Positions 9,012 to 23,346 of a stretch of DNA of 64,000 nt are shown piece after piece. A model generated the notes under the pieces. That model worked only from the letters and a program-made list of their open reading frames with translations. It was not told where the DNA came from and searched no databases. This stretch comes from an uncultured Pseudomonadota bacterium (GTDB lineage Bacteria > Pseudomonadota > Gammaproteobacteria > Steroidobacterales > Steroidobacteraceae), in assembly GCA_903884105.1 (NCBI GenBank), contig CAISDJ010000027.1, forward strand, positions 604 through 64,603, written 5' to 3'. The position numbers were made by a program, and so were the translations under genes. Within the stretch, counting starts at the first letter, position 1. The number at the start of each line of letters is the position of its first letter.

Positions 9012-11009
9012 TTAGCCTGCCTTCAGGAGCGTTCCGAGCTCGGTATGCCCTAGGGCATCGGCAATGTCAGTTGCCGAGTTGCCATCGCTGTTGCGTAGCT
9101 GACGGTTGGCGCCTGCTGCGAGCAGCAACTTCACGATCGGAGTGTGACCGTTTCGTGTAGCGACAATCAGCGCCGTGTTGCCGAAGGCGCCGGTAGCGTT
9201 TGCAGTGGCACCTGCTGCCAACAGACGCTGTACCGTCGAGGCGTGGCCGTTTGCTGCAGCCAGCAGTAGCGGCGACACGCCGCCGCGTACGGCGGAGTTG
9301 GCGTTGACTCCATTGGTGAGCAACAAGGCGACGATTTCCGCCTGACCCTCGCTGGCCGCTGTTGCGAGCGGTGACACACCCTGCTTGTCCTCCTGGTTCC
9401 GGTTCTCCGGTCGGATCAACTGGCGGGCGGCCTCAATGAATCCGGTCTGCGCTGCGTACCACAATGCGGATCTGCCTTCGGCGTCAACCCGCGAAGGATC
9501 GCCGCGATGCTGCAGCAGGATGTCGACGAGGCTGAGCTGCCTCGAACGCGTCGCAATCATCAGGGCATCGCGACCCAGCTTGTCGCTAGCCCCGATATCG
9601 AACCCCGCATCGACCAGTGCCGTCAGAATCTCCGCTTGTTGCGCGCGAGCAGCCGCCAGTACCGGTGGCTCGACGCCATTCGCAGGCGCAGTCCTCGAGA
9701 CGGCTGGCAACAGCAATTGCACCATCTTGAGGTCGCCGTGGCGAATGGCCCAATCGAACCACTGCGGATCGATGGCTGCCGCACCAGCGCCGAGGCTGCG
9801 TACCAAAGGCAGCAACTTCTCTGCCGCGCTCACATTGCGTGACGTGACGGCGTTGCCGAGCGCCGTCCGCAGTTCCGTTGGCGTCCACGGCTCCGTTCGT
9901 CGTGTCGCAATCAGCGAGTTGAGCATGACGGTCGACGGGCGTGTGGCGGCCACGCCAAGGTCCGACCAGCCGGCGTACAGGTCTACTTTTGCTGCGCGAC
10001 GCAGCGGTACGGAGGGCGTTGAAGCTTCTTTCTTGGCGACAGTGGCCGTAATTCCGGCAGCGCGCAACGCCTGGATTGCCGGTATCGATTCGCCGCGCAG
10101 CGCCCAGTCCAGCGCAGTCCAGCCTTCGGTGTTCCGCGCGTTGAACTTCCGTGTGGCTGCCATTCCGCTGAGCAGTGACCTGATGTTGTCCACCCGCTCA
10201 CTCCGTGCTGCATACATGAGCGGAGTGTTGCCAACTGTATCTTGCGCATCGACGTTGGCGCCCGCCTTGACCAGGGCGGAGACAGACGACCCGCTTTCAG
10301 AAGCAGACGCGAGCATCAGGGCCGTGGTGCCAAACCGGTCCGCTCGCTTCGTGTCCGCTCGCTGGCGAAGCAATTCCTGGACCGCATTCCCCGCGCCGGC
10401 TTCAGCAGCGCGCATCAGCGCATCCCTGCCAAACTCGTTAGTGGCATTGGTCAACTCGGGACTGGCGAGGATTCCGAGCAGTGCGGCGTCATCACCATCC
10501 GCTGCCGACCAGAACGCGGCGAGTCTTGCTGAGGGCTCTTTCAGATCCGAAGCTGGCAGGAATTCAAGCGGTAAGCTGCCCCGCTTCAGCGAACGTGACG
10601 CGAGTTCATGGCCGGCCTGAGCGGCAGCCTCCAGCCAGCGCCGCGACGCCTGAACGTCGCGGGGTGCTTCTCGAAGGAAAGACAGGGCAAGGCTGTAGGA
10701 CGCGTTTGCGTGTTTTTGCTCGGCGGCAGCCAGCAGCAATGAACGTTCCCTGGTCACGTCGGCGGTCACGCCCAGACCTGCGCGATAGAGCGAAGCCAGC
10801 AAATATTGAGCATTGGCGTTGCCCTGCGCCGCAAGCGGCTCAAGTGAGCGCACGGCAATCTGGAAGTTCTTCAGTCGGATGGCCGCCAGCGCGGGCTCCA
10901 TGGCAGGCTGCGCTGTGTAGGGGCGCGCTGCAGTCTCCGCCGCGAAAGTAGGAGCGCAGCCCAACAGCCATACCAGCGTGCATGTACGGAGGCCGTTACG
11001 CAGTACCAT
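9012..11009 (-). CDS. Secreted Sel1-repeat plus ankyrin-repeat protein
   Basis: Signal-like N-terminus MVLRNGLRTCTLVWLLGCAPTFA. Sel1 motifs (GNANAQYLLASLYRAGLGV, ...SYSLALSF). Two blocks of ANK repeats (G.TALM.A...G....V..LL..GA..N). The ORF overlaps the 3' end of the upstream oxidoreductase gene. The start could be 11072 or 11009. Confidence 0.8.
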   Translation of the reverse strand: MVLRNGLRTCTLVWLLGCAPTFAAETAARPYTAQPAMEPALAAIRLKNFQIAVRSLEPLAAQGNANAQYLLASLYRAGLGVTADVTRERSLLLAAAEQKHANASYSLALSFLREAPRDVQASRRWLEAAAQAGHELASRSLKRGSLPLEFLPASDLKEPSARLAAFWSAADGDDAALLGILASPELTNATNEFGRDALMRAAEAGAGNAVQELLRQRADTKRADRFGTTALMLASASESGSSVSALVKAGANVDAQDTVGNTPLMYAARSERVDNIRSLLSGMAATRKFNARNTEGWTALDWALRGESIPAIQALRAAGITATVAKKEASTPSVPLRRAAKVDLYAGWSDLGVAATRPSTVMLNSLIATRRTEPWTPTELRTALGNAVTSRNVSAAEKLLPLVRSLGAGAAAIDPQWFDWAIRHGDLKMVQLLLPAVSRTAPANGVEPPVLAAARAQQAEILTALVDAGFDIGASDKLGRDALMIATRSRQLSLVDILLQHRGDPSRVDAEGRSALWYAAQTGFIEAARQLIRPENRNQEDKQGVSPLATAASEGQAEIVALLLTNGVNANSAVRGGVSPLLLAAANGHASTVQRLLAAGATANATGAFGNTALIVATRNGHTPIVKLLLAAGANRQLRNSDGNSATDIADALGHTELGTLLKAG

Positions 11010-12354
11010 ATTTGGTCTCCACCTCGACGCCAGCCTGGCGCAGGAAGTCATTGGGAAGGACGCCTCCTGCATTGACGATCACCGACTGATTCTCCACCTC
11101 GAACTTGTTGCCCTTATGGTCCAGCAGCACGCGGTCCGTCGCGATCTGCCTGACCGTTGAGCCAAGCCGCAAGTCGAGTTCGCCCGACTTTGCGGCAGCC
11201 GCAACGCGATCGCGGTTCCTGGGCTTGGCTCGATCAAAGGCATCGCCGCGATAAGATAGCGTAACCTGCGTTCCTCCCAGTTCGGCGATGCTCGCTGCTG
11301 CTTCCAGCGCGCTATCTCCGCCGCCAACCACCAGGACGTGCTGGCCCTTGTACTGCTCCGGATCGAGGAGGCGGTATACGACCTTCGGCAGGTCCTCGCC
11401 TGGGACTCCCAGCTTGCGCGGTGTGCCGCGACGGCCAATGGCGAGCAGCACATTCCTGGTGCGGTACTCACCCTTCGGGGTCTTGACAAGGAAGCCCTGT
11501 GCTCCCAGGTTCTGCACGCCTTCGACTCGTTCCTTGTAGTTGATCTGCACCCCCGATTTCTTCTCGATGCTCTGCCAGAACTCAAGCAGTTCCTCTTTCG
11601 TCGTGCGGGTGAAATTCACCTTGCCGACAATCGGCAGCGTGGCGGCCTGCGTCATGACGAGCTTGGCTCTGGGATACTGGAATACACAACCACCCAGCGA
11701 CTCTTGCTCCAGCGTAACAAAACGCAGGCGCTTGGACAGGGCGGAAAGCGACGCAGCGAAGCCCGCAGGGCCCGCGCCGACGATGACGAGATCCAGAAGA
11801 TCCGCGCCTCCGCGGGGGCGGTGCTTCTCGATCATTTCAACAACCTGTTTGCCCTGCTCGAGCGCGTTGCGGATCAGGCCCATGCCGCCAAGCTCGCCGG
11901 CCACAAAAATGCCTGGCACGTTGGTTTCAAAGTGCGGTGTCAACACCGGAATGTCGATGCCGCGCTTCTCGGTGCCGAATACGAGTGTGATGGCGCCCAC
12001 TGGGCAGGCGGTACGGCATGCGCCGTGGCCGATGCAGTCTGTTGGACTCACCAGCTCTGCCTTGCCATTGATGAGGCCAAGCACGTGGTGGTGAGGTTGC
12101 TCCGGACAGGCCGTCACGCACGAGCCGCAGCCGATGCAGAGCGAAGGATCGATGATCGGATGCAGAGACGGTGGCTCAATCAAGCCGGCGCTCAAGGATT
12201 CGAATTTCGCTTCTGCGCTCTTGCGCGCCGTGTGGGCGCGCTGCCGACCGAACCACAGCCACAGAAGCAGCATTGGCACGATGTAGATTGCGTATTCGAG
12301 CACACTCACTCCGAAAGTCTTGCTGAGGTCGTCGGTATCCATGCCTGCTGGCAC
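10996..12354 (-). CDS. Membrane-anchored 2x[4Fe-4S] ferredoxin-domain / FAD-NAD(P) pyridine nucleotide-disulfide-family oxidoreductase
   Basis: N-terminal TM helix YAIYIVPMLLLWLWFG. CIGCGSCVTACPE and CIGHGACRTACPVGAI cluster motifs. Dinucleotide folds VIVGAGPAGFAASL and VLVVGGGDSALEAA. Confidence 0.8.
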   Translation of the reverse strand: MPAGMDTDDLSKTFGVSVLEYAIYIVPMLLLWLWFGRQRAHTARKSAEAKFESLSAGLIEPPSLHPIIDPSLCIGCGSCVTACPEQPHHHVLGLINGKAELVSPTDCIGHGACRTACPVGAITLVFGTEKRGIDIPVLTPHFETNVPGIFVAGELGGMGLIRNALEQGKQVVEMIEKHRPRGGADLLDLVIVGAGPAGFAASLSALSKRLRFVTLEQESLGGCVFQYPRAKLVMTQAATLPIVGKVNFTRTTKEELLEFWQSIEKKSGVQINYKERVEGVQNLGAQGFLVKTPKGEYRTRNVLLAIGRRGTPRKLGVPGEDLPKVVYRLLDPEQYKGQHVLVVGGGDSALEAAASIAELGGTQVTLSYRGDAFDRAKPRNRDRVAAAAKSGELDLRLGSTVRQIATDRVLLDHKGNKFEVENQSVIVNAGGVLPNDFLRQAGVEVETKYGTA

Positions 12355-12832
12355 TACCGTATCGGTCGCTGGAATCCCGCCGAGCGATCTTGACTGCTGG
12401 TCATGTCGAACGTCGATACAGGACCCCGCGCCGACAGACTACAGGCAAAGCAAGGCTGCGGTCGCGAAGTCAGTAACAGTTTCAACACCGTCCGTAGCTA
12501 CCCAACGAAACGAGTTCGGCACGACGGAGCCACGCTGCCGTCCGCGTTGACCGAGAACGTCGGTGCGGCCCGAGTATCGGCGGAACAGTCTTAACTGATC
12601 CTTAAGATCCAGAGCGGCAGCGATGCGCAATGGCCAAATATGTTGGTGGTTGGCGACAGATGACCATTTTGTGAAGTGGTCGACACCTGTAACTGTCGTC
12701 GGGCCCAGACAAGTCACTAAATTTCCAGTGCGGAGCCGCCATGCTTCCCACTAAACTTCTACATAACAAGAACGATTGTCCCGATGCCTCGAAAGCAGGC
12801 CGGGAAACGGCGGATTTAGGGAGTTTCACTGC

Positions 12833-14086
12833 ATGTCATTGATGGCGACATTTTGGGTCATGGCCGGATTCGCGGCGGGCATTGCTGCCTGCTTCGTCCT
12901 GCTGCCGATTCTTCGTGGCCCTGCGGACGAGCCAGCCAAGAATGGCCGGCGGGTGTTGGTTGGCGCAGCGGCCGCGGTGGGACTGTTTGGCCTCGCCATC
13001 GCAATTTATCTGCAGTTAGGTCGGCCTGATTCACTGGACGCGAGCCTGGGAAGCGCTCCTCACGCCGGTGTTTCCTCTGGAGAGAGCGGGCAAGTGGGCT
13101 CGATGGAAGCGTCCATCCAGAAGCTTGCTGACAAGTTGGCAGCGGGCGGCGGCACCGATGCGGAATGGGATCTCTTGGCACAGTCCTATGAGTTCCTGGG
13201 GAACGCGGAGGCTGCAAGCGAGGCGAGGCAGCACAGGGTTCCAGGCGCAGTGCAGCCTGCGGCACAGCTGGTGAATGACCTCACTACCTATGAAGATAAA
13301 GTCGGGGTTGCGCCGAAGGACGTTGGGTCCTGGCTCGGGATGGCTGGGCTCAAGCGCACGCAACGTGACTTCGCGGGCGCCGTCGCAGCCTACGAAAAGG
13401 TGCGTGAACTCAAGGGTATGACGGCGGATTCATGGGCGGACTATGCAGATGCGCTGGCTTCCCAACCCGGCGGTTCGCTGCGAGGCAAGTCTGCAGAGGC
13501 GATAGAGCAGGCACTCAAGATGGATCGGAATCATCCCAAGGCCTTGTGGCTGAAGGCGACGCTCGCGATTCAGGAGAAGCGCTTCAGTGAGGCGACCCGC
13601 CTGTGGCGGCAACTGCGTGGCGTGTTGCCCGCCGACTCTCCTGACGTACGCATTATCGAGGCCAACATTGCGGAGGCCGAGGCCCTGGCGAAGGGTGGCA
13701 GTCCTGCGCAGGCTGCGGTGGCACCAGCGCCTGCTGTAGCCGTGCAGATTGAAGGTACAGTAGATCTGGATCCTGCCTTGCGATCCAAGGTCACTCAGGG
13801 TATGACGCTCTATATCTATGCGAAGGTGCCCAATGCGCCGGGTCCGCCGCTGGCTGTTTCACGGGTCGCCGCGGGTTCCTGGCCTGCGCGCTTCGTACTC
13901 GATGACACCCAGTCGATGTTGCCGGACCGTCGGCTGTCCGACTTCCCGCAGGTCATCATTGAAGCGCGGCTTTCAAAGAGCGGCCAGGCAATCGCAGCCG
14001 CAGGCGACCTGCAGGGGCGCAGCGGCACGGTCGACACACGGGCTGCCAGGCCCGTCAACCTGAAGATCGACCAGGTCATCGGCTAG
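12833..14086 (+). CDS. ccmI: CcmI/CycH-like c-type cytochrome biogenesis (apocytochrome chaperone) protein
   Basis: N-terminal TM helix MATFWVMAGFAAGIAACFVLLPILRG, TPR-like middle region and a CcmI-type C-terminal domain (LYIYAKVPNAPGPPLAVSRV...FVLDD). ATG at 12833; the TTG-12776 extension is unsupported. Confidence 0.72.
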   Translation: MSLMATFWVMAGFAAGIAACFVLLPILRGPADEPAKNGRRVLVGAAAAVGLFGLAIAIYLQLGRPDSLDASLGSAPHAGVSSGESGQVGSMEASIQKLADKLAAGGGTDAEWDLLAQSYEFLGNAEAASEARQHRVPGAVQPAAQLVNDLTTYEDKVGVAPKDVGSWLGMAGLKRTQRDFAGAVAAYEKVRELKGMTADSWADYADALASQPGGSLRGKSAEAIEQALKMDRNHPKALWLKATLAIQEKRFSEATRLWRQLRGVLPADSPDVRIIEANIAEAEALAKGGSPAQAAVAPAPAVAVQIEGTVDLDPALRSKVTQGMTLYIYAKVPNAPGPPLAVSRVAAGSWPARFVLDDTQSMLPDRRLSDFPQVIIEARLSKSGQAIAAAGDLQGRSGTVDTRAARPVNLKIDQVIG

Positions 14087-14093
14087 GCTCATC

Positions 14094-15050
14094 ATGCAAG
14101 TTTCACGGTACGATCTCGCCTCGCGCGGCGAAGCACTGACTCCTGATCCGGTTGGATCCTCCCCGGATGAACGGGTGGTGGCCAATCGACGCGGTGTCCA
14201 TGTCCGCTCTCGCTGGCAGCGGTGGATCACGTTCGACAGCGTGTTCCTGACAATCGCTGCCTTGGTCGTCCTTGTCGGCTGGCGGTTTCCCACGGAGCGA
14301 TTCATTTCGCCCGCCGCCGGGCTCGGCTATGCACTCGGGATCACGGGCGGCAGCCTGATGCTGATCCTGCTGCTCTATCCACTGCGCAAGCGGATCGCGT
14401 GGTTTTCGAAGTTGGGGTCAGTCAAGGCCTGGTTCCAGGTGCATATCGTTTTCGGCGTAGTAGGTCCGATCTGCGTGCTTTATCACTCCAACTTTTCGCT
14501 CGGTGCGACCAATAGCAACGTTGCGTTGGCGTTGATGCTCGTCATTCTCGGAAGCGGCCTGCTTGGGCGGTATTTCTACGCCAAGATTCACGATGGTCTG
14601 ACGGGCCACGAAACCAACTATGCGGACCTCAAGGCGAATGCAGAAAGGCTGCGGACCGTCACGCTGTCCGTCAAGTTCATGCCGGAGCTGCTGACTCGTC
14701 TCGCCAATGAGGAGAAGCACCTCGTGGAGAACGCGCAGCGGTGCCCGGCGCTATTGCGGCCTCTCTATCTGGCTTGGTGCAGCCTTCGGGGCAGGTTGCG
14801 GCTCAACAGGCACGTCCGCCTTGCGCTCACGGCAGCGGCGTCCCAGTCGCAACTGATCGATGCGCATCGGGATCGTCTGCAGGAAACGGCGTACGCATAC
14901 ATCGACAGGCGGATGTCCGCTACTCAAAGCGTCGCCGAATACCAGACCTATGCGAACTTGTTTTCGTGGTGGCATCTGCTCCACCTGCCGTTGTTCTTCC
15001 TGATGCTGGTTGCCGGCATCGTGCATGTGGTCGCCGTACACGCGTACTGA
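14094..15050 (+). CDS. Integral membrane protein, about 5 TM helices, His-rich (unknown family)
   Basis: Starts 7 nt after the ccmI-like gene. The TM helices contain histidines (WFQVHIVFGVVGPICVLYH; WWHLLHLPLFFLMLVAGIVHVVAVH). Confidence 0.6.
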   Translation: MQVSRYDLASRGEALTPDPVGSSPDERVVANRRGVHVRSRWQRWITFDSVFLTIAALVVLVGWRFPTERFISPAAGLGYALGITGGSLMLILLLYPLRKRIAWFSKLGSVKAWFQVHIVFGVVGPICVLYHSNFSLGATNSNVALALMLVILGSGLLGRYFYAKIHDGLTGHETNYADLKANAERLRTVTLSVKFMPELLTRLANEEKHLVENAQRCPALLRPLYLAWCSLRGRLRLNRHVRLALTAAASQSQLIDAHRDRLQETAYAYIDRRMSATQSVAEYQTYANLFSWWHLLHLPLFFLMLVAGIVHVVAVHAY

Positions 15051-15123: not shown

Positions 15124-16689
15124 GTGAGGGCAAGCTGGATCTACAGACTGGTGGGGGCCTTGGGAATGCTCGTTGGGGCAGTACAGGTTCATGCGGCTAG
15201 CCAGGCTCTCGAGCGTCTCTTGATGCCGGGACCGGTGTCTGCTGCCCATGCAAAGTATGAGACTGACTGCGCGCAGTGCCACGATTTCGCAAACCGGCCG
15301 GGCCAGGCCCAGTTATGCGCAACCTGTCATGAGCCGGTTCGAGACGACATTCGAGCGGGAAAGGGGTTGCATGGCCGCCTACCGAACGCCGCCATGCTGC
15401 AATGTCGCGGATGCCATACCGAGCACAAGGGGCGCGACACCGATATCGTCAAGTTTGTGGCGCTTGAGTTTGATCACTCGAAGACGGACTTCGAGCTGGC
15501 GGACGCGCATGCCACCGTGCCCTGCGCAAGCTGCCACCAAGCCGGAAAGCCCTATCGAGAGGCTGCGGGTCAGTGCAGCGGATGCCACCTGAAGGACGAG
15601 CCACATGAGGGTCGATTGGGTAAGGACTGCGCGAGCTGTCATGATTCTGTGGCATGGAGCCGGACTCGCTACGACCACGGCAAGACGAAGTTCCCACTGG
15701 AGAACAAGCACGCAGAAGTCCCTTGCGCTGCCTGCCACTTTGGCAATCGCTACGACGGGACTCCTCAGGCCTGCGCCTCATGCCACTCGCCGGATGATGT
15801 GCATCGCGGAGCCCGCGGTACCGACTGCGCGTCGTGCCATACCACCAAGGAATGGCAGACGGCGCGCTTCAACCACGAGAAGGAGACGGGCTTCGCCTTG
15901 CGGGGTGCACACGCAGACGCCGCCTGCGCGAGTTGCCACAAGACCGGTCGTTATGAAGACAAAGTGCCAAAGGACTGTCACGGATGCCATCTCGCCGAAG
16001 ACACCCATGCCGGCCGCCTTGGGGAGAAGTGCGGTGATTGCCACACGAATGATGCGTTCAAGCCAGCGAAGTTCGACCACGACAAGGATACCAAGTACCT
16101 CCTTGAGGGAGAGCACAAACAGGTTTCCTGCCACGCATGCCATACCGCTCCGGTCGCGCAGCAGTCGTTGCAGTCCAACTGCTCGTCCTGCCATGCGGCG
16201 AACGACGTTCATGCCGCAAAGCTCGGGACACAATGCGAGTCCTGTCATGCGCCGGCCGGGTGGCGCTTTGATGTCCGCTTCGACCATGACCTCAGTGATT
16301 TCCAGCTTCTCGGGCAGCACGCTGCGGTCCCCTGCGAGCAGTGCCATCTGACACAGTCATTCAAGGATACGGCGTCCGGGTGCAACGACTGTCACGCGAA
16401 GACTGACGTCCACAAAGGCAGTCTTGGCAAGGAATGCGCCAGCTGCCATTCCCCGAACGGATGGGGGATCTGGGAGTTTGATCATGGCAAGCAGACCGGG
16501 TTTGGCCTGACCGGCGCGCACGGGAAGCTCACGTGCGCAGGTTGCCATCGCCAGCCGCCAGATGTCGTCAAGCTGTCACAGGACTGTGTGGCGTGCCACC
16601 AGGACGATGACGCTCACTTCGGTGATTTCGGACGGCAGTGCGAGCGCTGCCACGTCACCCTGTCATTCAAGCAAGTGCGTATCCGTTAG
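15124..16689 (+). CDS. Multihaem c-type cytochrome, 21 CXXCH motifs (seven c7-like trihaem modules)
   Basis: I counted 21 CXXCH motifs by eye. The GTG at 15124 gives a Sec-type signal, VRASWIYRLVGALGMLVGAVQVHAAS. The upstream part of ORF 15010 overlaps the preceding gene. Confidence 0.9.
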   Translation: MRASWIYRLVGALGMLVGAVQVHAASQALERLLMPGPVSAAHAKYETDCAQCHDFANRPGQAQLCATCHEPVRDDIRAGKGLHGRLPNAAMLQCRGCHTEHKGRDTDIVKFVALEFDHSKTDFELADAHATVPCASCHQAGKPYREAAGQCSGCHLKDEPHEGRLGKDCASCHDSVAWSRTRYDHGKTKFPLENKHAEVPCAACHFGNRYDGTPQACASCHSPDDVHRGARGTDCASCHTTKEWQTARFNHEKETGFALRGAHADAACASCHKTGRYEDKVPKDCHGCHLAEDTHAGRLGEKCGDCHTNDAFKPAKFDHDKDTKYLLEGEHKQVSCHACHTAPVAQQSLQSNCSSCHAANDVHAAKLGTQCESCHAPAGWRFDVRFDHDLSDFQLLGQHAAVPCEQCHLTQSFKDTASGCNDCHAKTDVHKGSLGKECASCHSPNGWGIWEFDHGKQTGFGLTGAHGKLTCAGCHRQPPDVVKLSQDCVACHQDDDAHFGDFGRQCERCHVTLSFKQVRIR

Positions 16690-16697
16690 AGGCAGTC

Positions 16698-19586
16698 ATG
16701 AAAGTCCTAACACGCTTGCTTTCTTTCCTGACGGCGCCGGGCTATCCGATGTTCGCTGTACTGTGCCTGATGCTGGGCAGCGTTTTCTTTTCTGGAGTGG
16801 AAGCACAGGTTGCGGCGCCCGGTCGAGTCGCTGCCTCGTTCGATCATCTCAGCACCGGTTTCGAGCTGACGGGTGCCCACCTTCAGGTGCGATGCGAGTC
16901 CTGCCACGTCGACGGCGTTTTCAAGGGGACCCAGGCGAACTGCGCCGCGTGCCATACGCCGGGCACGAGAGTGGGCGCGACGAGCAAGCCGTCGAATCAC
17001 ATCCTGACGACGGAACGTTGCGCGGATTGCCATACGACTGTTGCCTGGAATACCGCCGAGCGTTTCGATCACTCCCAGGTCATTGGGTCTTGCAGCAACT
17101 GCCACAATAACGTTCAAGTGGTTGGCAAGCCGGCGAACCACATTCCCACGAATCTGGACTGCAATTCGTGCCACAACGTCGGTTCGTGGGCGGTTGTGCG
17201 GTTCGATCACACCGGCGTAGTCGGCAATTGCGCCAGTTGCCACAACGGAACCCGCGCTACCGGCAAGGAAGCGAACCATATTCCGGTCGGCGATGATTGC
17301 GAGACTTGTCATACGCCAAGTGGCTGGCGCCCGGCAACGTTCAGCCACGTTGGCGTCACTGGCAATTGTGCAAGCTGTCATGACGGCGTACGCAGCACCG
17401 GCAAGGATCGCGCGCATATCCAGTCCAGCATGGTCTGCGAATCGTGCCATGTTCCGACTGCCTGGGCCCCCGTCACTCGTGTCGACCACACGCAGGTTCT
17501 CGGCAGCTGCGTTGTCTGTCACAACGGGACCAGCGTCACTTCAAGTGGCGTCAGGATCACCGGGAAGCCCGGTGATCACATTCGCTCAACCGATACCTGC
17601 GATGCTTGCCACGGCACGATGGTCTGGAGACCGGCAACGCGGGTGGACCATGCCAACGTCACTGGCAGTTGTGCGTCGTGCCATAACGGTACCGCTGCGA
17701 CCGGCAAGACGTTGGGTGTCCATATCGCATCTACGGACGCGTGTGAGACCTGTCATGGAACCACCGTCTGGCAACCCACTTCGCGCGTCGATCACAACCA
17801 GCTCGTTTCCGCGAACTGCGCCACCTGTCATGCACGCCCGATTGGTATCGGTGCCGTGCAGGCAACGGTCAAATCCGCTACCCACGTCGCCAGCGACAAC
17901 CAGTGCGCAACCTGTCATTCAACGCTGAGCTGGCGTCCTGCGAGTTTCGCTCACACTGGTATCACGAGCGGCTGCGCCAGCTGCCACAACAATGTGACCG
18001 CGACCGGCAAGTCAGGCGGCCACATCAATTCGACGGCGATCTGCGAGTCATGTCACGTGTCCACCTCCGTGTGGGCGCCGGTTGCGCCTGCACAGGTCAA
18101 TCACACGCAGGTCATTGGGTCTTGCAATACCTGCCATAACGGTTCAGTGAGAACTTCTTCAGGGACCCCGATCCAGGGCAAAGGGACGGGCCATATCCTG
18201 TCGACCGCCTCCTGTGATGCCTGCCACGCCATCGGATCATGGACGCCGACAGTGCGGGTCGACCACGGGCAGGTGCTCGGAAGCTGCTTTACGTGTCACA
18301 ACGGTTCGACACGGACTTCCGCAGGCGCATTGATTACCGGCAAGTCGCTCACCCACATTCAGAGTTCCAATGCCTGCGAGAACTGCCATTCGCCCAGTTC
18401 CTGGGCGACCAACGGCCGTCCGGACCACAGTACTTTCATCGGCAACTGCGCCACCTGCCACGGTGTATCGGCTTCGGGGAAGGGTCTCAATCACATCCAG
18501 TCAACCGTTGCCTGCGATAACTGCCATACGGTCTCTTCGTGGCTGCCGGCAGAGGCGGTCGATCACACGCAAGTGCTTGGAACCTGCACGAGCTGCCACA
18601 GCGGCTCGGTTCACACGAACTCGGGTGCGTTGATCCAGGGCAAGGGGACGAGCCACATAACAACCGCCCTGGAGTGCGACTCGTGCCACACGACCTCCAC
18701 TTGGGTTGTCGCGAGATTCGATCACACGAAGACCGCGCTGTCCTGCTTCTCGTGCCACGACAATACGCATGTGGCAGGCAAGACCGCCTCGCACATCACG
18801 ACCACGAACGCCTGCGAGACCTGCCACGTGAGCACGGCGTGGAAACCCGCCACCCGTGTTGACCATACCCAGGTGACGGGAACCTGCTTCTCATGCCACA
18901 ACGGATCGACTGCACGCGGCAAGTCGCAAACGCATATCGCGTCCGACAACACCTGCAGTACCTGCCACACGACGGTGGCATGGACCCCGGCCCAGTTCGA
19001 TCATCGCAATGTGGTTGCGGGGACTTGCGGTACCTGTCACAACGGCGTGAGTGCGACTGGCAAGCCGAACAATCACCTGCCGACAACGCAGTCCTGCGAC
19101 GCATGCCATGTCACGCTGGCATGGAAGCCGGCCACCTTCAGTCATGCCGGCATTACGACAGGCTGCAGCTCGTGCCACAACAACACGGTGACGGCAGGCA
19201 AGTCGACCAGACACATGACCACGTCCCGCGAATGCGTTATCTGCCACTCGACCACTGCGTGGACTCCTTTGACGTTCAGGCACACATCGACGGAGTACCC
19301 GGGTGACCACCGCGTTGCGTTGACCTGTACCGCCTCCGGGTGTCATTCGACCAACACGGATGCTGCCGTATGGCGAACCCCGTCATTGCGGGGCTCCTGT
19401 GCCGGGTGCCACTCAGGCAACTTCAAGGCGGGCAGTCACCCGAAAGTCAGCGGCGTGTCCAACTACACGGCGAGCGAGCTTCGAAATTGTTCGGGCGCTT
19501 GCCACACGTACACGAATGCGACGTTGACGACGATTTCCAAGACCCGGAATGGCCCACAGCACCGGGTAACGAGCAACGGCTTCTGA
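16698..19586 (+). CDS. Giant multihaem c-type cytochrome, 34 CXXCH plus two variant motifs (about 963 aa)
   Basis: ATG at 16698 lies 8 nt after the upstream stop and has a GAGG SD. Hydrophobic signal ...MFAVLCLMLGSVFFSGVEAQ. I counted 34 canonical CXXCH motifs plus CTASGCH and CSGACH. Confidence 0.9.
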   Translation: MKVLTRLLSFLTAPGYPMFAVLCLMLGSVFFSGVEAQVAAPGRVAASFDHLSTGFELTGAHLQVRCESCHVDGVFKGTQANCAACHTPGTRVGATSKPSNHILTTERCADCHTTVAWNTAERFDHSQVIGSCSNCHNNVQVVGKPANHIPTNLDCNSCHNVGSWAVVRFDHTGVVGNCASCHNGTRATGKEANHIPVGDDCETCHTPSGWRPATFSHVGVTGNCASCHDGVRSTGKDRAHIQSSMVCESCHVPTAWAPVTRVDHTQVLGSCVVCHNGTSVTSSGVRITGKPGDHIRSTDTCDACHGTMVWRPATRVDHANVTGSCASCHNGTAATGKTLGVHIASTDACETCHGTTVWQPTSRVDHNQLVSANCATCHARPIGIGAVQATVKSATHVASDNQCATCHSTLSWRPASFAHTGITSGCASCHNNVTATGKSGGHINSTAICESCHVSTSVWAPVAPAQVNHTQVIGSCNTCHNGSVRTSSGTPIQGKGTGHILSTASCDACHAIGSWTPTVRVDHGQVLGSCFTCHNGSTRTSAGALITGKSLTHIQSSNACENCHSPSSWATNGRPDHSTFIGNCATCHGVSASGKGLNHIQSTVACDNCHTVSSWLPAEAVDHTQVLGTCTSCHSGSVHTNSGALIQGKGTSHITTALECDSCHTTSTWVVARFDHTKTALSCFSCHDNTHVAGKTASHITTTNACETCHVSTAWKPATRVDHTQVTGTCFSCHNGSTARGKSQTHIASDNTCSTCHTTVAWTPAQFDHRNVVAGTCGTCHNGVSATGKPNNHLPTTQSCDACHVTLAWKPATFSHAGITTGCSSCHNNTVTAGKSTRHMTTSRECVICHSTTAWTPLTFRHTSTEYPGDHRVALTCTASGCHSTNTDAAVWRTPSLRGSCAGCHSGNFKAGSHPKVSGVSNYTASELRNCSGACHTYTNATLTTISKTRNGPQHRVTSNGF

Positions 19587-21970
19587 TGCGCAGAGGAGTA
19601 CTGAAGGCGCTGGTCGGGTGGTTGGGGTTGGGTCTGCTATCCCAGCCCGCGTCAGCCCAGTTTGCTCCGCGGTTGCTCGAAGCAGCAGATATCACGACGG
19701 CTGACACCCACCTGGATGTCGTATTGTTGTTCAGCTGCCAAGTCCGCTATTTGTCACACTTGCCGGCAGCCGAGAGCAATGTCGTCGACGTTCGGCTGGG
19801 TGTGGGCACTGATTGCCTCCAGGGCGGGAGCATCATCGGCAGCGAATCGCTGACGCCCCCCGCCGGGCAAGACGTCCTCAAGTCGATCGAGTTGATCCCC
19901 TTGCTCGCGAGCGACGTGGACCTGCGGATTACCTGGGGCACGCGGGAGCGCTACCTGATCGCTCCGACCTCTGATCAACGTGGGCTGCGGATCCGGGTGC
20001 TGCGGGACGAGCGGGGTGTGGATCGCAGCAGGGTATTGATTACCGAGCCCGAGGGCACGCTGGCTTCCGGCTACGCCATCAACCTCGAGTCGGCGACCGA
20101 ACCCTTCACGCCTGCCGCTGCAGCCGATGTGCAGCGTATCCTTGGCCAGGCAAGCTATGTTTCGAAGGTGGAGATCGAAAGTCAGACTTGGTATCGAATG
20201 CGCATCGGTCCATTCGCCACGCGTGCGGAGGCCGACAGGCAGCTGTTGCGTGCTCAGCAAGCGTATCCGCGAGCCTGGTTGGGGATCGCAGATGAGGTTC
20301 TGCACGAGGACGACGTCGTTACCACGACTACGACGGATGACATTCCCTCAGGTTCCGGACTCGTGCCTCCAACGGGTTTGTTTGCGATCGCACAGGCGCA
20401 GCTCAGGCGGCGCCAGTACGACGCGGCGATTGCTTCTTTCACAAGGTATCTCGTGGACGCGACGGGGGATACGCGAGGGACGGCTCGCGAGATGTTGGGT
20501 CTCGCCCAGGAGCGAAGCGGGCACCTTGCATTGGCCAAGGCCGAATATGAAGCCTACCTGCGTGAATTTCGCTCGGGTCGTGGGGCGGACCGTGTGCGAC
20601 GCCGCCTCAATGCGTTGCGGACGGCATCGGGCGCCAACCGGTCGCAGGAGGGTACCGGCGTTGATGAAGAACTCGCCTGGCGCTATTTCGGCGGCGTGTC
20701 GCAGTACTACAGATACGACGATAATCTCCGTACGATCGGCCCCCTCGAGGCGAAGTTCTCCAGCCAGAACGCGCTGCTGACCGATGCCGACTTCGTTGCC
20801 CGCAAGCGGGGCGAGTCGTTTGATTCGCTGGCGCGCTTCAATGGTGGCTACATCAAGGACATGTTGACCAAGGGTCCTGGGGACAGCTTCCGCCTCAGCA
20901 GCGCCTACTACGAAATGAGCGATGTGGAGCGGGGTTGGATGGCCCGCTTCGGTCGGCAGGCGCGCAGCAGCGACGGCATTCTCGGCACATTCGACGGCGC
21001 ATTGGGCAGCTACCGCCTTCAGCCCCATCTCACGTTCAATCTGGCAGCGGGGTTCCCCATCGAGTCCACCCGCAGCGGATTCAACAGCGACCGCCAGTTC
21101 CAGTCGCTCGCCGCCAATTTCGGTGTTCTGAGCGGTGGCTGGGAGCCATCCCTGTATGTGATCAACCAGACGTATCTCGGGGAGACGGATCGCCAGGCCG
21201 TGGGGGCGGAATTGCGGTACTTCAAGCCCGGACGAACCCTCATCGGTTTCGTCGATTACGACCAGCATTTCGGCGAGATGAACAACGTGATCGTGGTGGG
21301 TACGGTGCAGTTGCCAGCAATGTGGACGATGACGCTGGATGTCGAGCAGCGCAGGACGCCGATGCTCATGACCCGAAATGCGTTGATCGGGCAGGCCGTG
21401 CAGACGCTGGATCAATTGCTGGATCTGTTCACGAGCGAAGAGGTCAGGCAGCTGGCTCTCGACCGCACGGCGCCGTCCAGGTTGGCGAGCTTTTCGCTGT
21501 CGAGGCCCCTTGGCCAGCGTTTTCAGTTCGCACTGTATGCTGCGTCGACGGACATGGGCGCTACGCTGCCATCCGGAGGCGCCGAGGGCATTCCGGACCC
21601 GGGCGGTGACCTCTCACTGTCGGCGCAACTTCTGGCCATGAGCCTGTTCCAATCCGGCGATATCAACATCATGGCGGTTCGTTACCAGACGAATGATTTC
21701 GCCAAGACCGCCTCGATTGGCATCAGTTCACGATTGCCGCTCTATGGGGCCTGGCGGATTGGTCCGCAGCTGCGATTGGACCGCCGCGAGAATATCGCGG
21801 ATCAGTCGGTCCAGATGCTGCTGGCGCCGACGTTGCGACTCGGGCTCCAGCTCAAGAAGGTCATTTTCGAGCTTGAAGCCGGAGCCGAGCTGACGAATCG
21901 CACGGGATTCCCGGACGATGACAAGACGCGCCGCTATTTTTTCAGCCTGGGCTATCGATGGAACTTCTGA
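19586..21970 (+). CDS. Outer-membrane-type beta-barrel protein with N-terminal AMIN-like, SPOR and TPR regions
   Basis: TGATG overlap with the cytochrome gene. Signal MRRGVLKALVGWLGLGLLSQPASAQ. SPOR-like segment GYAINLES...WYRMRIGPFATRAEADRQLLRAQQAYPRAW. The C-terminal half (about 450 aa) has an alternating pattern and ends ...YFFSLGYRWNF, an OMP-type terminal Phe. Confidence 0.68.
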   Translation: MRRGVLKALVGWLGLGLLSQPASAQFAPRLLEAADITTADTHLDVVLLFSCQVRYLSHLPAAESNVVDVRLGVGTDCLQGGSIIGSESLTPPAGQDVLKSIELIPLLASDVDLRITWGTRERYLIAPTSDQRGLRIRVLRDERGVDRSRVLITEPEGTLASGYAINLESATEPFTPAAAADVQRILGQASYVSKVEIESQTWYRMRIGPFATRAEADRQLLRAQQAYPRAWLGIADEVLHEDDVVTTTTTDDIPSGSGLVPPTGLFAIAQAQLRRRQYDAAIASFTRYLVDATGDTRGTAREMLGLAQERSGHLALAKAEYEAYLREFRSGRGADRVRRRLNALRTASGANRSQEGTGVDEELAWRYFGGVSQYYRYDDNLRTIGPLEAKFSSQNALLTDADFVARKRGESFDSLARFNGGYIKDMLTKGPGDSFRLSSAYYEMSDVERGWMARFGRQARSSDGILGTFDGALGSYRLQPHLTFNLAAGFPIESTRSGFNSDRQFQSLAANFGVLSGGWEPSLYVINQTYLGETDRQAVGAELRYFKPGRTLIGFVDYDQHFGEMNNVIVVGTVQLPAMWTMTLDVEQRRTPMLMTRNALIGQAVQTLDQLLDLFTSEEVRQLALDRTAPSRLASFSLSRPLGQRFQFALYAASTDMGATLPSGGAEGIPDPGGDLSLSAQLLAMSLFQSGDINIMAVRYQTNDFAKTASIGISSRLPLYGAWRIGPQLRLDRRENIADQSVQMLLAPTLRLGLQLKKVIFELEAGAELTNRTGFPDDDKTRRYFFSLGYRWNF

Positions 21971-22611
21971 GACTCCCTGCCCGTAGCGGTCCGGGTTCGA
22001 GGCTGGCGCTGTGGGCCCTCCTGCTTGTTGCGACCTGCTTGCCGCAGTCCGGCTGCGTCGCTGTGCGCGCCGGTGCGCGTCAATACCAGGACGAAAGCAC
22101 CGCGGTCACGATCACTGTCGCGACGGATCCCGTGGTGCTGGCCAGGGAAGTGTCGATGCTCGCGGTCAATGCGCGTGACTATGTCAGCTTGTTCCCGCTG
22201 GAGGTGAATCGCTCCGGTCAGCGTCGCTACTACTTCTATGGCTACAGCTGGTCCACCATTGATCGACGCCAGACCCCAGGAGCGACAGTCCCGAGTGACG
22301 ATGAGTTGACCCTGCAGGCGGACGACAGAACGGTTGTGCTGCGGATGTCTTCGCGGGAGCTGCAGAATGCCGGGTTGCGTACTTTGCCCGTAGCGCCTCC
22401 TGCCTCTGGTGCGCGGCCGCTGTTGTTTCCCACGGATCGCGCCACGCTGCTGTTCGTGGGGACGGCCCGCGCCTTGTCCGCGCAGTTCGCGGCGACGTCC
22501 GGCGCTGCTTCCGTGGAACAGTTTCGGCAGTGGAGCGCTCCCGAACCCGGATTCAAGGGATTCTTCGAGCGGATAGGATCTGCGCAGCCGACCCGAACGC
22601 CATCAAGGTAG
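21958..22611 (+). CDS. Hypothetical lipoprotein
   Basis: 13-nt overlap with the barrel gene. Signal plus lipobox ...LWALLLVATCLPQSGC. No family was recognised. Confidence 0.55.
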   Translation: MELLRLPARSGPGSRLALWALLLVATCLPQSGCVAVRAGARQYQDESTAVTITVATDPVVLAREVSMLAVNARDYVSLFPLEVNRSGQRRYYFYGYSWSTIDRRQTPGATVPSDDELTLQADDRTVVLRMSSRELQNAGLRTLPVAPPASGARPLLFPTDRATLLFVGTARALSAQFAATSGAASVEQFRQWSAPEPGFKGFFERIGSAQPTRTPSR

Positions 22612-23346
22612 ACGAGACATCGCCTCTGCAGGCTTGATGCCGGCTGTCTGCTGTGCGAGCCGCCGGGTCAGTGCTCGCAATACATCGGCGATCCATTCCC
22701 GTTCCGCTTTGGTCACCCGCCGCGTCGACTTCCATGTCGTGATCTTCTCTGCGCCGCTGCGTCGCCCCCAGGGACTCGTAATCTCCGCAAGCTTGTGCAG
22801 CACGTCCAGGTTCGCGTTCAGCGCGTCTGCAGCCGTCTTTCGATCAACGAAACGACGCTCCAACAGGCCGATCGCTGCCCGTCCGGCCGGGATCAGCCGA
22901 CGCGGCTCACGCAGCAGACGCGCGTATTCCTCGGCCAGAAACAGGACGTCACCGTCCGCAATCATGTCGTGTGGCGCGGCGGGGTAGCTGGTATGGATGA
23001 GCTGCGCCGCTGAAGCAGTGCAGTCTGCATCGGCCATATGGGCGCACGGTTCGGCTGGCTCGCGGCCTGCGACGACAGTATGGATATGCGTCAGTTGAAA
23101 TGCGCCTGGTCCAAGGGAGAGCAGCGCGTGCACGTTCCAGCCGGCGATCAGTGGATCGAGCAGCGCGTGGGCAGCGGCTTCAGTGGCAAGGTCTCTTGTT
23201 GGAGTCAACGTCGCGATGCGGGCCTTAATCCAATACGAAAAGGAGCCGAGCGTCCCGACGGAGGTCACCTTGGGGTCGAAGTCTTCACCGTCGGCGCTCT
23301 CAACCCGGTAGCAGAGGCGAACAACTCGGGTGTTCAGTTCGTTCAT
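22603..23346 (-). CDS. Hypothetical protein (no recognisable domain)
   Basis: A 247-aa ORF with ordinary, non-shadow amino-acid composition. It is convergent with the cytochrome operon. Confidence 0.45.
   Translation of the reverse strand: MNELNTRVVRLCYRVESADGEDFDPKVTSVGTLGSFSYWIKARIATLTPTRDLATEAAAHALLDPLIAGWNVHALLSLGPGAFQLTHIHTVVAGREPAEPCAHMADADCTASAAQLIHTSYPAAPHDMIADGDVLFLAEEYARLLREPRRLIPAGRAAIGLLERRFVDRKTAADALNANLDVLHKLAEITSPWGRRSGAEKITTWKSTRRVTKAEREWIADVLRALTRRLAQQTAGIKPAEAMSRLP

Follow-up and report, generated by a model that had tools for sequence, protein, structure and literature searches.

The window analysed here is a stretch of 64,000 nucleotides of contig CAISDJ010000027.1 (positions 604 to 64,603, forward strand; GenBank assembly GCA_903884105.1) from an uncultured bacterium of the gammaproteobacterial family Steroidobacteraceae. 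It contains an operon of multihaem cytochrome genes that includes a gene for a protein of 794 amino acids (aa), previously described from the sequence (the original prediction) as an unusual fusion of AMIN-like, SPOR and TPR regions to an outer-membrane-type beta-barrel. This protein is very probably the outer-membrane subunit of a PCC3 conduit. PCC3 is among the most widespread predicted extracellular-electron-transfer systems, and its outer-membrane subunit has so far been treated as a plain porin. The gene and the predicted parts of its product are located in the window as follows:

19586..21970, + strand: whole gene, PCC3-type outer-membrane protein (very probable), 794 aa; uninterrupted open frame
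19586..19657, + strand: signal peptide, residues 1–24, predicted cleavage after ASA; sequence reading, model helix 3–17
19667..20005, + strand: AMIN-like beta-sandwich, residues 28–140; eight strands, Foldseek AMIN matches
20069..20287, + strand: SPOR domain, residues 162–234; PF05036, model fold, PDB profile matches
20372..20626, + strand: TPR-like five-helix region, residues 263–347; model helices, sub-threshold Pfam matches, family profile
20669..21967, + strand: predicted outer-membrane beta-barrel, residues 362–794, about 22–24 strands; DSSP strands 366–793, Foldseek
21353..21475, + strand: conserved two-helix insert within the barrel region, residues 590–630 (TRNALIGQ ... ALDRT); model helices, alignment
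21944..21967, + strand: C-terminal BAM beta-signal SLGYRWNF; sequence reading

Domain architecture of the outer-membrane protein

The N-terminus reads MRRGVLKALVGWLGLGLLSQPASA up to the predicted cleavage site, with Q as the next residue. This is a typical signal peptide on sequence reading, and its start methionine lies at a position common to 24 homologues in the alignment, in keeping with the signal peptide originally proposed. A search against NCBIfam assigned the 794-aa protein to no family, and a Pfam search returned nothing for its first 160 or its last 430 residues. Full-length homologues fall into 27 clusters with 33–88% identity. An AlphaFold2 model of the whole protein, built on 25 homologues (mean predicted local distance difference test (pLDDT) of 76.8, predicted template modelling score (pTM) of 0.51), consists of five units: a beta-sandwich (residues 31–139), a beta-alpha-beta-beta-alpha-beta fold (163–234), five helices (265–347), 22–24 strands (366–793), and linkers, which are of low confidence at residues 141–161, 235–261, and 347–360. 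According to this model, residues 28–347 form soluble domains, which standard outer-membrane-protein topology would place in the periplasm; to our knowledge, the domain types found in the N-terminal 340 residues are periplasmic in all cases. The four domain calls (AMIN, SPOR, TPR, and barrel) survive testing at differing strengths, AMIN at the fold level only and TPR mainly at the level of the family.

The SPOR segment matches Pfam PF05036 at residues 177–231 with an E-value of 4.6e-8 and a score of 33.7 bits (gathering score 21), and the same family is matched in 34 of 58 relatives. Its modelled elements (strand 163–170, helix 176–186, strands 190–197 and 200–210, helix 213–226, strand 231–234) follow the beta-alpha-beta-beta-alpha-beta order of an RNP-like fold. 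When a profile of the region was compared with the PDB, the top entries were exclusively SPOR domains (RlpA, FtsN, and DamX); the segment as a single sequence gave marginal matches, and the profile performed better. With a Pfam score above the gathering score, a SPOR fold in the model and SPOR-only top PDB matches, this part of the original prediction is confirmed. In FtsN, the glycan-binding positions are Q251, S254, and W283. Alignment and register, by inspection, place W202 of our protein at W283, N166 at Q251, and S169 at S254. At these positions, the Trp is invariant in the alignments and the Ser is the consensus residue, and the Gln is replaced by an equally invariant Asn.

The N-terminal domain (N-domain) was also modelled in isolation, on 35 sequences from related loci, which yielded eight strands at a pLDDT of 92.4. 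Its best three Foldseek matches in the PDB are all AMIN domains (PilQ B2 4aqz, PilQ 4av2, and AmiC 4bin), with a probability of 1.00, template modelling (TM) scores of 0.51–0.56, and E-values of 2e-3 to 5e-3; a fourth PilQ entry stands lower in the same list. In sequence, however, Pfam AMIN (PF11741) has no match in the protein at E ≤ 1, so that the resemblance to AMIN domains noted originally holds for the fold and not for the sequence. Among the relatives, one has a true Pfam AMIN domain (48 bits) at the position of the N-domain, and another has an SH3 domain. Two cysteines, Cys51 and Cys77, are invariant in two alignments of close relatives, and not all stand-alone copies of the N-domain in other families retain both.

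The TPR region comprises about 2.5 repeats, with five helices at residues 265–347 of the model, and is separated from the first modelled barrel strand by only about 18 residues. For the single protein, TPR_9, TPR_2, and TPR_16 match at residues 264–342 with E-values of 0.004–0.015 and 16–18 bits against gathering scores of 27–35. A profile of 58 family members, in contrast, matches the TPR of CpoB (E 5e-6), the designed consensus CTPR (4e-5), and BamD (2e-4), and TPR_16 is matched in 32 of the 58 members; the same profile also matches the SPOR domain of DamX. The TPR assignment made at first sight therefore stands for the family and falls below the Pfam thresholds for this protein alone.

The C-terminal 430 residues are predicted to fold into an outer-membrane beta-barrel of about 22–24 strands. 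AlphaFold2 gives a pLDDT of about 80–90 across this region, and a Foldseek search with the full model yielded 326 PDB matches at E ≤ 0.001, the best 50 of which are all outer-membrane barrels (E down to 7e-10). The list is led by the FimD/PapC ushers, MOMP, OccK, and AlgE, with TM scores of 0.2–0.46. Two relatives match Pfam outer-membrane barrel families. The protein ends in SLGYRWNF, and the beta-signal residues G789, Y790, and F794 are nearly invariant among 137 family members. The modelled strands, the barrel-only matches and this C-terminus bear out the barrel that had been read from the sequence. Nowhere is the protein more highly conserved than in the insert at residues 590–630, for which the model has helices at 608–614 and 617–626 and in which eight residues are invariant (N598, A599, I601, G602, Q603, A624, D626, and R627). 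This insert may lie in the lumen, cap the barrel or touch a cytochrome.

An operon with the hallmarks of PCC3

The gene is embedded in an operon of the following composition, with a divergent flavoprotein gene beside it:

12776..14086, + strand: CcmI/CycH-like cytochrome c maturation chaperone; Pfam Ig_CycH (E 1e-30), TPR_CcmH_CycH (E 2e-11)
14094..15050, + strand: PCC3 inner-membrane protein, 318 aa; two WX3HX13H motifs (residues 113 and 293), SGLLG
15124..16689, + strand: 21-CXXCH cytochrome ('periplasmic' PCC3 cytochrome); motif count, Pfam Cytochrome_C7 in five stretches
16698..19586, + strand: 34-CXXCH cytochrome ('extracellular' PCC3 cytochrome); motif count, Cytochrome_C7, MtrC/MtrF domain II/IV
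21958..22611, + strand: probable lipoprotein, 217 aa; start 13 nt inside the end of the barrel gene, no Pfam family
10996..12354, − strand: 2x[4Fe-4S] flavoprotein, divergent; Pfam Pyr_redox_3 and Fer4

The ATG of the barrel gene overlaps the stop codon of the 34-CXXCH cytochrome gene (TGATG), which bears out the proposed coupling of the two genes. The same cytochrome has one CX3CH and one CX4CH motif in addition to its CXXCH motifs. PCC3, as defined by He et al. in 2017 (PMC5566968), comprises an inner-membrane protein of about 300 aa with five transmembrane helices, an SGXXG motif, and two WX3HX13H motifs, a periplasmic cytochrome with a median of 21 haems, an extracellular cytochrome with a median of 34 haems, and a predicted porin; it was later surveyed in the Gallionellaceae (PMC10734462). 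The 21 and 34 CXXCH motifs counted here equal the published medians, the gene order is the one described, and, judged from its sequence, the operon fits all checkable PCC3 hallmarks.

Distribution, module variation, and gene neighbourhood

An exhaustive profile search over 1.84 billion representatives (50% identity) retrieved 2,792 representatives of the TPR-barrel family at E ≤ 1e-3 and 1,217 at E ≤ 1e-30; a word-indexed search with the 58-member alignment returned only close relatives found previously. In a genome scan, relatives of the barrel protein were located on 276 contig stretches, the best 80 of which all come from metagenome-assembled genomes (MAGs) labelled Steroidobacteraceae, Gammaproteobacteria or (uncultured) proteobacterium, the nearest with 93% identity. 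Of 401 genomes sampled evenly from the same class, 56 have a match to the barrel family; these belong to 49 of the 321 genera. When the barrel of locus L112, whose cluster encodes cytochromes of 21 and 17 haems, was used as the query, the 120 best-listed named relatives comprised Thiogranum longum, a cultured carrier, and MAGs, with no PCC3 type strain, such as Sideroxydans lithotrophicus ES-1 or Leptothrix cholodnii SP-6, among them.

A domain census of the best 150 family representatives shows the layout N-domain-SPOR-TPR-barrel to be the commonest (n = 78), followed by proteins without SPOR (n = 27) or without the N-domain (n = 17); others have two or three SPOR copies (n = 16) or consist of TPR and barrel only (n = 9), so that SPOR copy number in the family ranges from 0 to 3.

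Genes of the operon are found again in about 80 related loci, and a Steroidobacteraceae relative with 33% identity has this same operon. Neighbours were counted over 83 related loci, many of them on truncated contigs. A homologue of the lipoprotein gene directly follows the barrel gene in 71 of these, the upstream CcmI-like gene and the membrane protein gene are each present in 54, and the flavoprotein gene lies beside the cluster in 46. Twenty loci from different families were taken from the 56 matching genomes. In 19 of them, the TPR-barrel gene adjoins multihaem cytochrome genes, usually including a 21-CXXCH gene; the membrane protein with two motifs is encoded in 15 and the divergent flavoprotein in 14. 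With the full layout in 78 of 150 representatives and cytochrome genes adjoining in 19 of 20 diverse loci, the fusion is not the unusual one it was first taken to be.

At six of the 20 diverse loci (L104, L105, L110, L115, L120, and L121), the N-domain has a gene to itself, which includes a signal peptide and is flanked by those of the large cytochrome and the barrel. What remains constant in the PCC3 outer-membrane subunit, judged from the domain census and the neighbourhoods, is its TPR-barrel core. The AMIN-like and SPOR modules, as interchangeable accessories, remain with the complex in fused or separate form, a pattern which argues that they work together with it. In at least one genome, that of L115, fused and stand-alone copies of the N-domain occur together.

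Relatives are publicly named as SPOR domain-containing or tetratricopeptide repeat proteins, as members of the tol-pal system YbgF family, or as BamD. These names are explained by the putative wall-binding and docking modules that the periplasmic part carries. The names YbgF, BamD, and tetratricopeptide repeat derive from the short TPR and are thus misleading for a barrel protein of 700–1000 aa in a cytochrome operon. Examples are P0197, P0268, and P0060, which are named assembly factor BamD, YbgF family or tetratricopeptide repeat protein.

A proposed wall-tethered cytochrome sheath and alternative explanations

Taken as a whole, the protein is best explained as a cytochrome sheath tethered to peptidoglycan that serves as the PCC3 outer-membrane subunit, a reading to which we assign a probability of roughly 70%. 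The barrel would sheathe a multihaem cytochrome and so link the 21-haem wire of the periplasm to the external 34-haem cytochrome, with electrons crossing in one direction or the other. Beneath the periplasmic mouth of the barrel, the TPR may form a collar that docks a cytochrome or its assembly factor, and the SPOR and AMIN-like modules, carried on flexible linkers of about 20–27 residues, could reach to the cell wall and bind peptidoglycan glycan strands; if extended, the linkers at residues 141–161 and 235–261 would span tens of angstroms. Such anchoring could keep the barrel aligned with an opening in the wall that lets the haem wire through, or hold the distance between outer membrane and wall constant for a periplasm-spanning haem wire of fixed length. 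In other proteins, SPOR and AMIN domains concentrate at septal or polar peptidoglycan, and the wall modules could also direct insertion to remodelled, 'denuded' peptidoglycan at septa and new poles. The odds somewhat favour peptidoglycan binding by the protein being real. It is reasonable to propose, from the identity of the domains, that the modules attach the conduit to the wall or scaffold its cytochromes, and this is the reading that we prefer. A more tentative extension, with odds a little short of even, is that wall-binding modules, fused or separately encoded, and a TPR collar are general to PCC3. In that case, PCC3 would be a trans-envelope machine anchored to the wall and fixed in position, not a free-floating complex, and published strand counts of up to 42 would be artefacts of soluble beta domains.

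Several observations weigh against a wall-tethered PCC3 subunit or limit the detail in which it can be described. PCC3 was described in 2025 as functionally unverified, and the PCC3 genes of Sideroxydans lithotrophicus ES-1 were not induced by Fe(II) but down-regulated. Our assignment to PCC3 was made by shared hallmarks. In the SPOR domain, Asn occupies a position at which FtsN has Gln. The fold scores behind the AMIN call are moderate (TM about 0.5, E about 2e-3), and an hhalign comparison of the N-domain profile with the relative bearing Pfam AMIN was weak (E 0.043, probability 1%); given this result and the missing Pfam match, we speak of an AMIN-like fold. The Pfam TPR matches of the single protein lie below their gathering scores, and with a pTM of 0.51 for the whole model, the strand number of the barrel is approximate.

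The TPR-barrel might alternatively be an export or assembly device, comparable to BcsC, PgaA, and PelB or to the ushers, that passes the large cytochrome to the cell surface or mounts it there and is not its permanent sheath; binding of the substrate or of a chaperone would then fall to the TPR, and bracing of the machine to the wall-binding modules. The succession of TPR and barrel with a short linker between them agrees with such a device, as do the 24-strand ushers and the AlgE and PelBC exopolysaccharide barrels among the best fold matches, the resemblance of the TPR to BamD, a substrate-binding assembly factor, and the dedicated CcmI-like chaperone at the head of the operon. However, these fold matches, at TM scores of 0.2–0.46, are generic for outer-membrane barrels, and about 2.5 TPR repeats compare poorly with the long arrays of BcsC, PgaA, and PelB. 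Polysaccharide synthase genes were not found nearby, and in the characterised porin-cytochrome systems of the Mtr literature, the barrel is a stable sheath. We consider an export device unlikely.

Far less probable is a general role in the envelope or in cell division for a protein that merely adjoins a cytochrome operon. SPOR, AMIN, and a CpoB-like TPR are typical of division-site proteins (FtsN, DamX, DedD, and RlpA for SPOR; CpoB), and relatives bear the public names YbgF family or BamD, but this idea is contradicted by the conserved synteny, with the cytochrome neighbourhood kept at about 80 related loci and, among 20 loci of different families, at 19. Moreover, the start and stop of the gene overlap the flanking operon genes, other SPOR-containing sequence exists elsewhere in the genome, and none of the known division proteins has a counterpart of the barrel core. 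We give slightly less credence still to the notion that the C-terminal region is no membrane barrel and that the modelled one is an artefact of beta-rich sequence. The hydrophobic/polar alternation on the DSSP strands is modest, with many strands rather polar, a check that we regard as uninformative, and the pTM of the whole protein also speaks for this notion. It is contradicted by the model confidence of the barrel region (pLDDT 80–90), the fold matches (326 in the PDB at E ≤ 0.001, the best 50 all outer-membrane barrels), and the canonical beta-signal with its near-invariant G, Y, and F, to which the signal peptide and the two relatives matching Pfam outer-membrane barrel families can be added.

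Comparison with PCC3 porins and other envelope proteins

The operon described here shares with the published PCC3 systems (PMC5566968, PMC10734462) the four components and their order, with the barrel gene beside the genes for cytochromes of 21 and 34 haems. Its outer-membrane protein differs in topology, as the PCC3 papers describe a plain porin with up to 42 predicted transmembrane strands, whereas our protein has a barrel of about 430 aa and about 22–24 strands, preceded by AMIN-like, SPOR, and TPR modules in its first approximately 340 aa. In the PCC3 literature's own figure, the porin of L. cholodnii has 22 strands, near the count obtained here, and the published counts of up to 42 most likely include soluble beta-rich N-terminal domains. 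In its searchable text, the PCC3 literature calls the protein only a porin and does not mention SPOR, AMIN, TPR or peptidoglycan; the domains are visible to annotation pipelines but have so far been unconnected to PCC3. The gene is thus a further member of a known PCC3 kind, and what is new is the corrected topology and the family-wide presence of putative wall-binding modules. In addition, the operon goes beyond the four-gene PCC3 definition by its CcmI-like gene, the downstream lipoprotein gene, and the divergent FeS-flavoprotein gene. If such anchoring exists, it is relevant to the way in which very long haem wires pass through the cell wall, and the putative wall-binding and docking modules give handles for experiments.

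With MtrB, MtoB, and PioB, the protein shares its presumed role: an outer-membrane barrel, with its gene next to those of multihaem cytochromes, would allow haems to cross the membrane. Homology, however, was not detected: the MtrB/PioB/MtoB family PF11854 was matched neither in the protein nor in the 58 relatives, in agreement with the earlier statement that this is not the architecture of such porins. The partner cytochromes also differ, as they carry 21 and 34 haems here and 10 there. MtrB is a bare barrel of 26 strands that is not known to have wall-binding or TPR domains in the periplasm.

PilQ, in which AMIN domains tie an outer-membrane channel to peptidoglycan, offers the nearest precedent for the anchoring proposed here. 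Structurally, the N-terminal domain is matched best by the AMIN domains of PilQ and AmiC; differences from PilQ are the lack of Pfam AMIN membership and a monomeric barrel in place of the secretin ring. The SPOR domain has the Pfam assignment and RNP-like fold of those in FtsN, DamX, DedD, and RlpA, with the Trp, the Ser (by register), and YRxRxGPF conserved. Those proteins, however, are inner-membrane-anchored or lipoprotein division factors, whereas the SPOR domain described here is fused to a barrel in a respiratory operon. Finally, BcsC, PgaA, and PelB likewise have a periplasmic TPR followed by an outer-membrane barrel, and AlgE and PelBC are among the fold matches, but the TPR is very short here and most similar to those of CpoB and BamD, the neighbouring genes encode cytochromes, a CcmI-like protein, and a lipoprotein, and the likeness of the barrels is generic.

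Accompanying genes

The CcmI-like gene heading the operon suggests a dedicated maturation helper for at least 55 haem attachments, as it recurs in 54 of the 83 related loci and, among the 20 diverse ones, in three. The divergent flavoprotein, kept next to PCC3 clusters far outside this family, is membrane-anchored, lies outside the published four-gene definition, and may be a missing redox partner. A convergent open reading frame of 247 aa (22603–23346, − strand), kept in the three closest loci only and without a Pfam family, is probably unrelated to the conduit. At three loci from other genomes of the sampled class (L113, L114, and L122), the barrel gene adjoins single-frame cytochromes with 67, 69, and 89 CXXCH motifs, respectively. 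Outside Steroidobacteraceae-like loci, the 217-aa probable lipoprotein was not detected, save in one genome of the same family. Most of its copies have a lipobox-like L-x-[AG]-[GA]-C motif, followed by the conserved segments EYLDExTAATITV...PLVFARER...ARDYV...WSTID.

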